From a virus (lineage: Duplodnaviria > Heunggongvirae > Uroviricota > Caudoviricetes): a DNA stretch of 6,724 nucleotides. Where the stretch lies: IMG/VR virus record IMGVR_UViG_2713896831_000003. The stretch is one strand, 5' to 3'. The notes beneath the pieces are model-generated. The model saw nothing but the letters and a program-made list of their open reading frames with translations, did not search any database and was not told where the DNA came from. Position 1 is the first letter of the stretch, and each line of letters opens with the position of its first letter. The translations under genes were made by a program, and so were the position numbers. Positions 1,082 through 6,724 of this stretch are shown piece by piece.

Positions 1082-1110
1082 TTGACAAATAACCTTGAGC
1101 ATGACATAAT
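1082..1110 (+). promoter_or_regulatory. Sigma70-type promoter, near consensus
   Basis: TTGACA (1082-1087), 17-bp spacer, CATAAT (1105-1110). Predicted transcription start around 1117. Confidence 0.6.
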
Positions 1111-1287
1111 TGTATATATAGGGAGAGCAATTCTCCTTGAATTAAAATATTAATCGTCTCTACATCGATGATAACTATATTCTGAGTTGGAAAGGTGCAA
1201 TGCTTTTCGTCATGGCCTTTCAGGTTAGTCTGAGAGGCTATCTCAAAAAGTGCTTAATCATTCATTCATTGAACCCTTTACAGCTTT

Positions 1288-1316
1288 GCCCTAATCATGA
1301 GTTAGGGCGTTTCTTT
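1288..1316 (+). terminator. Putative intrinsic terminator or attenuator within the leader
   Basis: Stem GCCCTAA (1288-1294) / TTAGGGC (1302-1308), 7-nt loop, followed by GTTTCTTT (1309-1316). Confidence 0.45.
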
Positions 1317-1387
1317 AAGAGTTTTCAAACAGAACTTTTAAAGAAAGTTTTTCCTGAAACTTCGTTAACGTTATAAAGCAAACCTCC

Positions 1388-1434
1388 AAAGCCCTTCACA
1401 GATGAGGATGAACCTATGTTTAGGGCTTTTCTTT
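1388..1434 (+). terminator. Second terminator-like hairpin within the leader (weaker)
   Basis: AAAGCCC (1388-1394) pairs with GGGCTTT (1423-1429) around a ~28-nt loop, followed by a T-rich run (TTTTCTTT). Its 3-prime half, TTAGGGC-TTTCTTTA-AGAG, repeats the motif at 1302-1321. Confidence 0.3.
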
Positions 1435-1529
1435 ATAGAGCATCTTTAATAAATCGTTAAGTCATCTTCTAAGTGTATTGGCGTTGAAGGTGCTCTATTA
1501 AGAAATAATCACACTTAGAGGAAATTATA

Positions 1530-2944: not shown

Positions 2945-4993
2945 ATGAGCAAATTTACAGTTGATAGTTTTATCGTTGAATTAGGCTTCAGTGAAAACGT
3001 TGTTAAAGGCTTGCAAAGAGTTGAAAAGGCAGCTTTGCAGTCAGCACAAAGAATTGAAAAGAACCTAAATAAAGGTTTCAGGATTAATACAAAACAGCTT
3101 GATAGTAATTTGACAAGTTCTTTAGGGCAACTTGAAAGGAAGTTTAATAAGGCTTTTGACAAGATTGAACAGAGAGCAAGAAGCACAAAAGCTTTCCGTT
3201 TCACAAGTCAGGTTAATGACGCTATTAATCCTCCAAAACAACCAAGACAGCCACGAATTAGCGGAAACAGAGCAATCACAGCAGCTTACTCAGCGAATAT
3301 GAGCAAGTTAAAGGGCTTTGACCCTGTTTTGCAGAAATACATCAAATCTCAGTTTTACGGGCTATCTGCTAAAGCTGGTCAGATGGATAATTCAAAATTC
3401 AATGAGAAGCTGGCTCAGTTAAATGCTTCAGTCAGAGAAGCAATTGCTAAAGCTAAAGGTCATACATCCACCAGCATTAACGGTGACAGAGCAGCTAATA
3501 GTCTTGATAGTTTGAGTTCAGCAGCAGTTAAAACAGCAGGTGCATTTATCAGCTTTCAGGCTGTACTATCCGCTTATCAGAAGATTATGGAAGTTGGCCT
3601 TCAACGTGCATCATCGGAAAGAAGTATTGATTTCGTATTCGGTGACCAAAGTACACAGGTCAAAAAGTTCATTCAAGATTTAACTCAAATTACTGGTATG
3701 GACACAACCGAAACACAAGCACAGTTTGCTTCATTTGGTGCATCTGCAAAAAATACGATGGGTCTTGAAGGCTCAGAGGAATTATTTAAAAACTTAACTG
3801 GATATGCCCGTTTAATGGGTCGTTCAGATGAGCAGATTCAAAGAGCATTAACCGCAGTATCGCAGATGGCTTCTAAGGGTCAGGTGATGGCTGAAGAGCT
3901 TAAGGGGCAACTATCTGAAGCTTTACCGGGTGCTACTCAGGCATTTGCAAAGGCTTTAGGTCTGACTGAAAAACAGCTTTTCGATAAGATGAAAAATGGT
4001 GATGTTAAAGCCTCTGATGCACTCCCTAAGTTTGCTAAAGAACTTGGTTCACAGATTAATTCCAGAGGTGGCTGGAAAGCTATTCAGGACTCTACGCAGA
4101 CGATGTTAGGGAACTTAAAGAATACTTGGAACAACTCACTAACGGATATCTTCAGAGGTTCTGAAAATGGTCTTCAAGATTTCACAAGAAGCTTAACAAC
4201 GCTTTTAAATAGTCTTGGTGGGAGTGGTAAAACATTAGGTGAAAGTCTTGGTAATCTCATGACTTCTATGTCACACGGTGTCGATAACCTGACTGATATT
4301 AGTTACAGGGTAAGGGCGTTCTTTGACGAGGTGACATTGGCTTATCGTGGTTTAACCGATGAACAAAAGAAAGTTGTTGATGCTTTAGGTTCTGGCTTGA
4401 TTAATAGTTTAAAAGTCTTGGCTGGTGTTATTGCTGTAAATAAAGTTGTTGGTGTAACCAGAAGTATTTACGGGCTTATGACTGCTATCACAAGATTAGG
4501 TCAGGTCGCTGATACTACAGCGGATAACGTGAATAGAAAGAACGGGAAACCATCAAGGTTTAATCTTGGGAATATGCTATTAGCTGGTAGTGCTATCTAT
4601 GCAGGTTATGAAAGATTAGCCTCTACACCTGAACGAATGGAAGCACAAGCTAAATTACCAGAGCTGGCTAAAGAGTCTGGACTTAAGCCAGTATTTACTA
4701 TGGACGATGTGAAAGGTTGGTTTAATAGTGCAGCTATGAATCTTGCTAACTTCCAGCATCCAGAATTAATCACCATGAGACAAGATGCGGCATTAACGAA
4801 TACGGATATCCAAAGCCTGAGAGATGAAATTAGTGCTTTGAGCAAACGTATTCAGGAGCCTGTGAAAGTTTCACTTGGTGGTGAAGTTGCCATTAAACCA
4901 GATGAAACCAGCTTTATGACCTTTAGCAGTAATATCTACGACCAATACGCAGAAGCTACGCTATTAAGTTCATCATTCCCAGAAGATGATTGA
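2945..4993 (+). CDS. Phage tail tape measure protein-like, 682 aa
   Basis: ATG at 2945 with GAGGTG (2929-2934) upstream. The long Ala/Leu/Gly/Ser/Gln-rich sequence looks largely helical by composition. The central segment (ALTAVSQMASKGQVMAEELKGQLSEALPGATQAFAKALGLTEKQLFDKMKNGDVKASDALPKFAKEL) matches the conserved tape-measure domain seen in tailed-phage tape-measure proteins. Ends with three consecutive in-frame stops, TGA TAA TAG. Confidence 0.7.
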   Translation: MSKFTVDSFIVELGFSENVVKGLQRVEKAALQSAQRIEKNLNKGFRINTKQLDSNLTSSLGQLERKFNKAFDKIEQRARSTKAFRFTSQVNDAINPPKQPRQPRISGNRAITAAYSANMSKLKGFDPVLQKYIKSQFYGLSAKAGQMDNSKFNEKLAQLNASVREAIAKAKGHTSTSINGDRAANSLDSLSSAAVKTAGAFISFQAVLSAYQKIMEVGLQRASSERSIDFVFGDQSTQVKKFIQDLTQITGMDTTETQAQFASFGASAKNTMGLEGSEELFKNLTGYARLMGRSDEQIQRALTAVSQMASKGQVMAEELKGQLSEALPGATQAFAKALGLTEKQLFDKMKNGDVKASDALPKFAKELGSQINSRGGWKAIQDSTQTMLGNLKNTWNNSLTDIFRGSENGLQDFTRSLTTLLNSLGGSGKTLGESLGNLMTSMSHGVDNLTDISYRVRAFFDEVTLAYRGLTDEQKKVVDALGSGLINSLKVLAGVIAVNKVVGVTRSIYGLMTAITRLGQVADTTADNVNRKNGKPSRFNLGNMLLAGSAIYAGYERLASTPERMEAQAKLPELAKESGLKPVFTMDDVKGWFNSAAMNLANFQHPELITMRQDAALTNTDIQSLRDEISALSKRIQEPVKVSLGGEVAIKPDETSFMTFSSNIYDQYAEATLLSSSFPEDD

Positions 4994-5004
4994 TAATAGT
5001 CGAA

Positions 5005-5075
5005 TGCTACGTGAAATCTTCTGAACAGATATACCCACCAAAAATTATTTTTTACGTAGCTCACGCTTAACAGAG
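5005..5075 (+). promoter_or_regulatory. Conserved intergenic element, copy B (candidate promoter or operator upstream of the 5151 gene)
   Basis: Collinear with 2861-2931 at roughly 70% identity (by eye). Internal inverted repeat GCTACGTGAAA ... TTTTTTACGTAGC (5006-5016 / 5048-5060). Confidence 0.45.
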
Positions 5076-5150
5076 AAAACACTTATATATCAAAGGCTTG
5101 GTTAAAAATGATTAAAATACACTAAGTCTTTGAAATCAAAGGAGAATTTA

Positions 5151-5924
5151 ATGATTTACTCTAACCAAATCAAATATAGTGGCAAAGATGGCATCTATTT
5201 CCACTTAAGAGATAATGTAGATGCCTTCTTAACCTTATCAGCAACTGAAAACATGGAATTTGACAGCCCTATGCAGGTAACTACACAGAACATGCAATCA
5301 GGGCAAACCGTCACAGATAATGTGCAAAGAGCACCCAGAACAATCACTATTAGTGGTGTCGTTGTAGTTGGCTATGAAGGAAGTTTATTATTAACTCGTC
5401 AGGGTCAATTAGTAGAAAACTTCATTGACACTCTCGAAAGCTGGCGTGACCAGAAGCAAATTATTTCGGTCATCTGTAAAGACGGTATCAAGATTGATGA
5501 CTCCATTATCACGAGTTTTAAAGCCTCTAAAGATGTTGGAATTTCAAACGGCTTAAGAATCCAATTAACTTTTCAGGAAATTAACTTTAAAGCTATTGTG
5601 GGTCAGACTGATATCTCGGCTGCGACCGGAAGGACTTCTACCACAAGTGATGGTGGTGCTACCAGTAAAAAGAATACTGGTAATACTACAACAAGTCTAG
5701 GTAATGGTATGTTGCTGTGTCAGGAGCTATATAATCGCTCTACGAGTGAACTTTCTAATGAGCAACTTCAAGCCCGTATCAATTGTGGTAGAAGTGTCAA
5801 AGTTGAGAATGGAAAAAGCACCTTCTCAGATGCCGCTAATGAGCAAGCTTCAAAGGCGCTTAATAATGCTGGTACAGGTAATGTTTTGAAGAGGCTTTCT
5901 GTGAATCCTAACAAGCGCTACTGA
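5151..5924 (+). CDS. Hypothetical protein, 257 aa, possibly tail-associated by position, with a Thr/Ser/Gly-rich low-complexity segment
   Basis: ATG at 5151 with AAAGGAGAA (5138-5146) upstream. The ORF track starts it at TTG 5130, which lies inside that ribosome-binding site. It sits immediately downstream of the tape-measure gene. No diagnostic motif recognised. Confidence 0.65.
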
Positions 5925-5938
5925 CGATAGAATCTCAA

Positions 5939-6724
<786 letters not shown>

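Follow-up and report, generated by a model that had tools for sequence, protein, structure and literature searches.

The window analysed here, a 6,724-nucleotide stretch of DNA from a caudoviral record (IMG/VR IMGVR_UViG_2713896831_000003), contains an unannotated region between a 107-aa gene and a 236-aa gene. A preliminary description, made from the sequence alone, had seen in this region a near-consensus promoter feeding a structured leader with two terminator-like hairpins. Positions given below are those of the window and refer to the plus strand unless another strand or locus is named. The region consists of a conserved block (1057-1081), a sigma-70 promoter (1082-1110) and a leader predicted to span 1117-1529, which runs into three genes encoding proteins of 236, 102 and 67 aa (1530-2786). 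These genes, which the leader would control as an operon, belong to no known family, and the operon is closed by a strong terminator identified in a terminator scan (2812-2847, a 15-bp stem followed by T6). As judged from sequence comparisons, the leader is a conserved plus-strand RNA with covariation-supported helices, which bears out the earlier suspicion that it is not a plain intergenic spacer.

Homologous leaders were collected from several sources. A sensitive blastn search with positions 992-1529 revealed the region in 477 of 5,426 complete Escherichia coli genomes, at 73-100% identity, always on the chromosome and never under an annotated feature. In addition to these genome records, leaders were obtained from loci located via the downstream protein, from one metagenome scan and from one scan of viral contigs, and after orientation and trimming the collection held 111 distinct leaders, with 87 distinct sequences for the 3′ domain. 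Because the metagenome loci were retrieved by the exact 20-mer at 1190-1209, they were excluded from conservation claims on that segment, for which a motif-independent set of 27 leaders (the window and the loci found without the 20-mer) was used instead. A scan of species-representative genomes yielded only two further Escherichia loci, and the family appears to be restricted to Escherichia and close relatives. The leader resembles none of 50,697 phage records; its promoter, its invariant core and the motif labelled D1 have no copy in Felixounavirus JH2; and a cmscan search of the whole window against Rfam 15, on both strands and at E ≤ 1, gave no matches. In all 126 loci with enough sequence, the leader is followed by an open reading frame (ORF) of at least 150 codons, almost all of 233-246 codons. 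It always lies directly upstream of this ~235-aa gene and was never found apart from it. The leaders themselves are mosaics of exchangeable modules, with (GATG)n and (CATT)n runs of varying length and two optional insertions of ~28 nt that form hairpins; the variation lies at the equivalents of window positions 1140-1189 and 1255-1270.

The promoter, TTGACA-17-CATAAT (−35 at 1082-1087, −10 at 1105-1110), agrees with the consensus at 11 of 12 positions and carries an extended −10 TG at 1102-1103. Among the sigma-70 matches of the window it ranks first and alone exceeds 9/12, and no further sigma-70 match occurs between the second terminator-like hairpin (T2, below) and the start codon of the 236-aa gene. 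Promoter-like matches as a class are not enriched in the window (12 versus 17.1 ± 3.3 in shuffles), so support for this example comes from its conservation. The −35 element is TTGACA in 110 of the 111 leaders, while the TG and the 17-bp spacing are found in all of them; the −10 element reads CATAAT in 96, GATGAT in 12 and GAAGAT in 3, with A2 and T6 always kept. A promoter of this type is thus retained in 111/111 homologues. From its geometry, transcription is predicted to start at about 1117-1118, where the sequence TATATA overlaps the predicted start (1113-1118), and the promoter spacer is also unusually conserved. Immediately upstream, the block ATGTTACCAATCTGTTAAAAAGCTG (1057-1081) is at least 90% conserved at nearly every position and exact in 78/111 leaders, and the sequence just upstream of it is less than 50% conserved. 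This block holds an A-tract, AAAAAG, at about −43 to −38, and three TGTT motifs occur at 11-bp spacing (1058-1083). The A-tract may serve as a proximal UP-like element, and the block as a whole could act as an UP element or as an operator.

Folding of positions 1117-1529 points to structured RNA made from the plus strand. The predicted energy is −125.1 kcal/mol (z = −5.85, with none of 100 shuffles as good), compared with z = −2.9 for the minus strand. The predicted transcript would begin with a hairpin, H1 (1119-1139, arms 1119-1126/1132-1139; −8.5 kcal/mol, z = −2.9), that has the core GGGAGA-GCAAU-UCUCC. All 26 sequence variants of H1 fold to a hairpin of 6-8 bp, and two of its pairs are changed on both sides (GC47/GU37/AU18 and GC77/AU21), so that the hairpin noted earlier near the start site is one whose pairing is kept through compensatory and G-U changes. 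Nineteen of the 111 leaders have an extra 28-nt insertion just before H1 that forms a hairpin of its own, which fits a transcript starting there. H1 is followed by a variable spacer (1140-1189), an indel hot spot that exists in three unrelated versions, with an optional 28-nt insert in 26/111 leaders and a (GATG)n run of 0-5 copies.

Beyond this spacer lies H2 (1190-1208; GAAAGGU-GCAAU-GCUUUUC, 7 bp by RNAalifold), which is nearly invariant: the segment GTGCAATGCTTTTCG is intact in 26 of the 27 leaders of the motif-independent set. H2 contains an SD-like (Shine-Dalgarno-like) GGAAAGG and the AUG at 1200, and it shows no covariation because the segment does not vary. The next hairpin, H3 (1212-1241, arms 1212-1223/1230-1241), comprises 12 bp and folds with its flanks at −24.2 kcal/mol (z = −4.3); the 9-bp hairpin noted earlier at 1215-1238 forms its core. 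Its 36 sequence variants all fold to 10-13 bp, four pairs are changed on both sides, G-U pairs are numerous, and 99.6% of cells are paired, versus 48-62% with slid partners. In minimum-free-energy folds H3 can gain an outer helix (1203-1209/1244-1250) that competes with H2 for GCUUUUC, since the 3′ arm of H2 has an alternative partner, CAAAAAG or CGAAAAG, at 1244-1250. These two folds are mutually exclusive, and comparison cannot choose between H2 and the extended H3 because nothing varies there. For H1, H2 and H3 together, 99.7% of 2,160 cells are standard pairs, versus 48-62% when partners are slid by 1-3 columns. Changes on both sides are seen in six pairs and 83 cells, and none of 500 shuffles attains the pairing or the covariation score of the real alignment. 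The frequent G-U pairs at covarying positions (for example GC51/GU48 and UG48/CG30/AU25) indicate that the RNA is on the plus strand. Next comes an A/U-rich linker (1251-1287), predicted to be mostly unpaired, that carries a (CATT)n run of variable copy number and the motif CCCUUUACAG and occurs in three sequence classes.

Two terminator-like units follow. T1 (1287-1317, hairpin 1287-1309; −11.7 kcal/mol) pairs GCCCUAA with UUAGGGC and continues into GUUUCUUU. It passes the rule of the terminator scan with 9 pairs, a 5-nt loop and 6 T in 8, and is present in about two thirds of homologues, among which the variant GCCCUGA/UUAGGGC keeps the pairing via G-U. Termination at T1 would yield an RNA of ~190-200 nt. 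The U-tract of T1 (1310-1323) can also pair with 1333-1346 in a hairpin at 1310-1346, a 14-nt inverted repeat (93% complementary) that is present in the minimum-free-energy fold. T2 (1388-1436; −14.1 kcal/mol, z = −2.1) has an 8-bp stem, AAAGCCCU/AGGGCUUU (1388-1395/1422-1429), with a 26-nt loop and then UUUUCUUUAU; the stem is flanked by an A-tract and a U-tract, the U-tail being UUUUCUUU. Its loop ranges from 14 to 46 nt across homologues, and termination there would yield an RNA of ~310-320 nt. A GC-rich stem directly followed by a U-tract, as expected of an intrinsic terminator, is found at T1, and T2 is a long-looped example; termination itself is a prediction for both.

Both T-tract hairpins of the preliminary description (1288-1316 and 1388-1434) are therefore present, and a terminator-type hairpin is found in every homologue: all 111 leaders contain a GCCCU...AGGGC hairpin with a U-rich tail, in two units in 74, one in 36 and three in 1. 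In single-unit leaders the stem covaries, with AUAGCCCU/AGGGCUAU in some and AUGGCCCU/AGGGUCAU in others. The imperfect direct repeats of ~50 bp reported to enclose the two hairpins are also real. The copies at 1271-1321 and 1388-1440 lie 117 nt apart and are identical in 38 of 54 columns (70%), with an alignment score of 52 versus 12.5 ± 5.6 in shuffles (reached by 0 of 2000) and no equal elsewhere in the window. However, the two-repeat layout does not define the family, as it is only the common variant and 36/111 leaders have a single unit.

The best-supported part of the leader is one that the preliminary description missed. The 3′ domain is dominated by a long helix, H5 (1428-1505; −29.8 kcal/mol, z = −7.4), which has 21 or more bp in the window fold, a covarying core of 19 bp (1431-1449/1484-1502) and an enclosed apical region of ~35 nt. 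In the 87 distinct sequences H5 is ~100% paired, and at least 9 pairs are doubly substituted (UA/CG, AU/GC, AU/CG, CG/UA, GC/AU and others). The apical region contains a segment, UCUUCUAAGUGU (1465-1476), that is complementary to the ribosome-binding region ACACUUAGAGGA (1511-1522) of the 236-aa gene. In 87/87 distinct 3′ leaders this anti-SD helix is the best duplex that the upstream leader can form with the 25 nt before the ATG, and its mean energy is −17.2 kcal/mol, compared with −9.2 ± 2.6 kcal/mol for shuffled ribosome-site regions. Moreover, the two partners change together in four classes of anti-SD/SD pairs: UCUUCUAAGUGU/ACACUUAGAGGA, GYCUCUUCUAAGU/ACUUAGAAGAGG, CUUCACCUCU/AGAGGUGAA and AUUCACCUC/GAGGUGAAU. 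The leader thus has what is expected of an SD-sequestering operator, namely an upstream complement of the SD that changes together with it on both sides. This covariation suggests that anti-SD pairing masks the ribosome site, through a pseudoknot beyond the reach of the folding tools used or through an alternative fold, and that H5 with its anti-SD/SD pairing adds predicted translational control to the terminators upstream.

Together, these features lead us to propose that the region is a terminator-gated, translationally masked, cis-acting 5′ leader RNA of the three-gene operon that would also release RNAs of ~190 and ~310 nt. We give this reading a probability of roughly 0.55. The comparative data behind it show RNA helices, their strand, terminator-type hairpins in every leader, SD/anti-SD complementarity and a fixed gene linkage, whereas we infer where transcription starts, that it really terminates, that the operon is off by default and what kind of trigger releases it. 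Initiation would take place near 1117, driven by a very strong sigma-70 promoter that combines a consensus −35, a 17-bp spacer, an extended −10 and an upstream A-tract. The RNA would start with H1, which may protect its 5′ end, and continue through the invariant H2 and the 12-bp H3. Most transcripts would then stop at one or two terminators, T1 (~1317) and T2 (~1436), to leave RNAs of ~190-200 and ~310-320 nt and an operon that is switched off. Those transcripts that read through would form H5, whose apical anti-SD segment would pair with the ribosome site of the 236-aa gene and mask its translation. Full expression would therefore require both read-through and unmasking, and infection by a helper phage of the Felixounavirus type is a plausible signal. 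Control might be exerted by antitermination or attenuation. The preliminary description had offered a short regulatory RNA or a read-through-controlled leader; a conserved RNA with terminators upstream of the same gene is indeed found, but sequence cannot separate these two options, which are not mutually exclusive.

Several observations weigh against this proposal. What it says of the promoter, of the 3′ ends and of the off state is predicted from sequence. Nested folding leaves the ribosome site unpaired with H5 dominating, so the mask must be either a loop-to-tail pseudoknot or an alternative fold. Termination could be weak, given the long T2 loop (14-46 nt) and, in some single-unit terminators, a U-tract that is broken up or shifted. 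Nor is there any sign that read-through is balanced, as leaders with a weaker −10 do not tend to have fewer terminators (Fisher p = 0.23). Finally, no antiterminator candidate emerged: Pfam, PHROG, NCBIfam and PADLOC gave no family for the leader-adjacent island proteins, and nothing resembling Q, N or RfaH/ops was recognised.

It is conceivable that the main product is instead a trans-acting small RNA (sRNA), ~190 nt long when it runs from the promoter to T1 and ~310 nt when it continues to T2, that pairs with mRNAs of a helper phage or of the island, in the manner of SviR or of StxS, an sRNA made from the late promoter of Stx phages, and for which operon control is secondary. Such a role, the main rival to the leader model, could coexist with it, although we consider it unlikely as the principal function. 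The strong promoter, the 5′ hairpin, the unpaired A/U-rich linker (1251-1287) directly before an intrinsic terminator and the lack of a conserved ORF would all suit an sRNA; the 20-nt segment at 1190-1209, essentially invariant amid variable surroundings, is what one expects of a seed region; and there is a satellite precedent in SviR (10.1101/2022.04.08.487710). A possible target is suggested by a 14-nt exact complement of the invariant core (1195-1208) in the sense strand of the Felixounavirus JH2 gene JH2_061, which encodes a 69-aa protein with a basic N-terminus. The match, at JH2 39519-39532 (locus L191), extends to 23/29 positions. However, about one such 14-nt match between leader and genome is expected by chance and it is not the best duplex by energy, so that it serves as a lead only. 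Within the island, neither the core nor the anti-SD segment has a second target-like site. In the window the linker could pair strongly around the starts of the 102- and 67-aa genes (−22.7 and −20.3 kcal/mol), but linker classes and start-region classes do not co-segregate in 120 loci, and we treat the pairing of 1251-1269 with these gene starts as chance in A/T-rich sequence. Furthermore, the element never occurs apart from the ~235-aa gene, and the covarying SD mask shows selection on control in cis. A coding function for the leader is scarcely credible. A 58-codon ORF at 1200-1376 is preceded by GGAAAGG, and both this SD-like sequence and the AUG are invariant, but the ORF varies from 5 to 58 codons among the 111 leaders, its peptides are unrelated past residue 3-5 owing to 2-nt indels, and it is never annotated. 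We therefore reject a conserved small protein from this ORF, and also leader-peptide attenuation, which is unlikely because the stop of the ORF has no fixed position relative to H3 or T1.

Another way to account for these features is without conditional control. T1 and T2 might end the transcripts of an upstream early operon (the HNH, 107-aa and 21-aa genes), the promoter at 1082 might be an ordinary operon promoter, and the untranslated region might set mRNA stability and a fixed low level of translation. A rightward promoter further upstream in the island (L001 12964-12992, described below) would drive genes into the region, where no terminator precedes 1082, and searches of Pfam, PHROG, NCBIfam and PADLOC identified no trans-acting factor. 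RNase III cuts duplexes like the 19-21 bp of H5, and such cleavage would remove the anti-SD loop constitutively. Even so, we regard the absence of conditional control as quite improbable. Terminators that serve an upstream operon are expected before the promoter, whereas T1 and T2 lie 3′ of it and act on its own transcripts, and the combination in every homologue of a near-consensus promoter, one to three terminators and a covarying SD mask looks poised but blocked. The conservation might also reflect a function of the DNA itself, with no role for RNA, if the region were an origin of replication, a site for packaging or an operator bound by a protein. Satellites, PLE among them, have their origin in a stretch devoid of ORFs; the region here has repeats of several kinds (TGTT three times at 11-bp intervals, a pair of ~50-bp units, and GATG and CATT runs that vary in length); and the block surrounding the promoter is more conserved than promoter function alone needs. 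Compensatory changes with many G-U pairs, however, are A-C mismatches on the other strand and meaningless in duplex DNA; the co-change of SD and anti-SD only makes sense in mRNA; and folding is asymmetric between the strands (z of −5.85 versus −2.9). A purely DNA-level function is therefore very unlikely, and an operator overlapping the promoter is possible as an addition to the RNA, not as its replacement.

The masked, terminator-gated leader that we favor is a new RNA element built on known principles. The late unit of lambdoid phages combines the PR′ promoter, the tR′ terminator, the 6S RNA and the Q antiterminator; the short transcript of Stx phages is the sRNA StxS. By prediction the leader is similar, as a strong sigma-70 promoter (1082-1110) lies directly before morphogenesis-type genes, an intrinsic terminator (T1) follows after ~190 nt, within the ~200 nt from the promoter typical of such a unit, and would release an abundant short RNA, and expression would occur only on read-through. 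It differs in that no Q-family protein is found (Pfam, PHROG and NCBIfam yielded no family for the upstream 107-aa protein or the rest of the island proteins) and in having mostly two terminators plus an SD-masking helix; the TATATA at the predicted start and the conserved promoter spacer are at most candidates for a pause signal and a Q-binding element. N/nut antitermination involves a boxB hairpin that has a GNRA-like pentaloop and is preceded by boxA (CGCUCUUA). H1 and H2 both have a GCAAU pentaloop, but no boxA lies beside them; a boxA-like UGCUCUAUUAAG at 1492-1503 is buried in the 3′ arm of H5, and an arginine-rich protein resembling N did not turn up. Leaders that mask an SD and pseudoknots between a loop and a ribosome site are exemplified by the lambda N leader, which has an RNase III site, and by repZ of IncI-alpha/IncB plasmids. 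The leader resembles them in having a hairpin loop complementary to a ribosome site tens of nucleotides downstream and a nearby long duplex that could be processed. However, the repZ pseudoknot activates translation and is controlled by an antisense RNA, whereas the pairing in the leader extends over the SD itself, and no promoter for an antisense RNA turned up.

Among RNAs from mobile elements engaged with phages, P4 immunity relies on the CI RNA, which is derived from an early-operon leader containing seqA, seqB and seqC and causes premature termination in that same leader. The leader described here likewise belongs to a candidate satellite of an E. coli myovirus and would give a leader-derived RNA by premature termination in its own leader, but it has no Rfam match (C4/CI-type families included) and, by inspection, no internal complement of the repeated CCCUUYACAG. 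Type III toxin-antitoxin systems (toxIN) are phage-defence loci in which a terminator sets the RNA:protein ratio and the ToxI-type repeats are tandem units of 34-40 nt. Their order of strong promoter, repeated structured RNA, intrinsic terminator and protein gene is also seen here. Unlike in toxIN, the repeats are ~50 nt long, imperfect (70%), 117 nt apart and single in 36/111 leaders, with no tandem array, and the 236-aa protein has no ToxN/AbiQ match in Pfam or PADLOC and a model consisting mostly of long helices. The satellite RNA SviR of Vibrio cholerae PLE arises, in species of 160, 210 and 300 nt, from an intergenic region that lacks ORFs and has a rho-independent terminator; the 5′ untranslated region of the PLE orf2-5 operon is a second regulatory RNA (10.1101/2022.04.08.487710). 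Compared by description, the two have in common an ORF-less intergenic region in a satellite (here a candidate one) of a lytic myovirus, an own promoter, an intrinsic terminator and several RNA lengths, which for the leader are predicted. They differ in their promoters, since factors of the phage and the satellite induce that of SviR and that of the leader looks like a constitutive sigma-70 promoter; inverted repeats flank SviR and are absent at the leader, whose targets are hypothetical.

Searches of Pfam, PHROGs, NCBIfam and PADLOC placed none of the three operon proteins in a family. In public records the product of the 236-aa gene (1530-2240) is often called a transposase, and most of its 120 closest homologues (among 3,118), which where named come from Escherichia, Shigella or Salmonella, carry this label, but none of these four databases supports it. 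A single-sequence AlphaFold2 model of the protein, of low-to-medium confidence (pLDDT 67.8), consists largely of two long helices, and no PDB entry matches its fold. Over their ribosome sites and first codons (2239-2275 and 2573-2609; MNDLTER and MIDLTER), the 102- and 67-aa genes are 86% identical and hence paralogous at their starts; related islands have one or two genes of this kind, of two start types. The 102-aa protein shows no similarity to JH2_090, a JH2 protein encoded two genes upstream of the phage's own tape measure gene. Two exact copies of TGGTTGGGTAAAAA, 17 nt apart, span the stop of the 67-aa gene (2776-2806) before the terminator at 2812-2847. On the other side of the leader, an unannotated 21-codon ORF at 991-1056 encodes a hydrophobic peptide, MELVIICFVLIGMIAGASIKV, and overlaps the stop of the 107-aa gene (TAATG). 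Other island classes retain an ORF at this position whose product is also hydrophobic but differs in sequence (MGLIIAWTALGLFVGCWVGNTVNKN in L002, for instance).

The window is a fragment of a larger element. Its ends (1-139 and 6585-6723) form a perfect 139-nt terminal inverted repeat that corresponds to the terminus of IS100 (IS21 family) and matches thousands of database records. Since both ends match this terminus, two IS100 copies bound the window, and the right-hand copy truncates a serine recombinase gene (5939-6583, minus strand). In genomes free of the insertion sequence, the window sequence is a portion of an ~11.5-kb island. In E. coli AR434 (NZ_CP029122; locus L001, where the locus coordinate is the window position + 13867 and the island spans 9908-21400), the island interrupts the DUF72 gene yecE between yecN and yecD, and related islands are located between yciI and tonB. 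The gene order is conserved. A small regulatory or replication module is followed by small genes, often including an HNH gene, and by the 107-aa gene; then come an unannotated gap of ~450-570 nt (the leader), the ~235-aa gene and one or two genes of 67-102 aa; and these are followed by a tape measure gene, a Dit-like "baseplate" gene and a large serine recombinase gene on the opposite strand, whose complete product is of the large type with 506 aa.

About 2 kb upstream of the leader, at L001 12927-12992, are two divergent near-consensus promoters that both have the extended TG. The leftward one is TTAACA-18-TATAAT (11/12), and the rightward one, at L001 12964-12992, is TTGACA-17-TAGTAT (10/12) and would drive the early genes into the leader. 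Apart from this pair and the leader promoter, the only sigma-70 match in the island at 10-11/12 is at L001 10668-10697 (10/12). The divergent pair looks like the early switch region of the island. To its left is an unannotated 69-aa ORF (L001 12623-12835, minus strand) with no Pfam match. Further downstream, a 66-nt direct repeat (71% identical) occurs at 2861-2926, upstream of the tape measure gene, and at 5005-5070, upstream of the Dit-like gene. It begins with TGCTACGTGAAATCT and ends with CACGCTTAA, and each copy contains the internal inverted repeat CTACGTGAAA...TTTACGTAG. The repeat holds no sigma-70 match, and neither phage JH2 nor the 50,697 phage records contain a counterpart; it may serve as a late control site that depends on the helper.

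The tail genes of the island point to a relationship with Felixounavirus. Its tape measure protein is 30% identical to that of Felixounavirus JH2 and 65 aa shorter (682 versus 747 aa), with the first ~28 and the last ~10 residues strongly conserved. The Dit-like protein shares 81% amino acid identity with its JH2 counterpart, and over 544 nt its gene matches Felixounavirus genomes at ~94-95% nucleotide identity. These two genes (2945-5924) are adjacent and in the same order in JH2 as in the island, which has no recognisable capsid genes. PLE satellites of V. cholerae are known to swap the tape measure, tail chaperone and baseplate hub of their helper, giving chimeric, shorter tails (PMC12987554). 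The island resembles these satellites, in its genes only, by being small, by encoding a large serine recombinase and by having its own tape measure and baseplate/hub genes related to those of a lytic myovirus. From its gene content, it looks like an undescribed PLE-type satellite that is a parasite of Felix O1-type phages (Felixounavirus), and our literature search returned no paper connecting Felixounavirus with any satellite.

The leader is a common element, found in 477/5,426 E. coli genomes, that is unannotated and outside known RNA families. The comparative support for its helices is unusually clear, so that it could be curated directly as a new cis-regulatory RNA family. It occupies the apparent control point of an island whose tape measure and Dit-like genes are derived from Felixounavirus, the same strategy as that of PLE. 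A bolder reading, which we put forward tentatively and hold to be improbable as a whole, is that the leader is the phage-sensing switch of a new family of E. coli satellites preying on Felix O1-type phages, in which a helper product unlocks the operon and the terminated RNA, expected to be abundant, also acts in trans on helper transcripts, as SviR does in PLE. If true, this would represent a new RNA class with roles both in cis and in trans in the conflict between phages and satellites. Felix O1-type phages serve in typing and biocontrol of Salmonella and E. coli, and a widespread satellite that responds to them could alter how well those phages work. The leader could provide a simple reporter for which signal from a lytic phage wakes the satellite.

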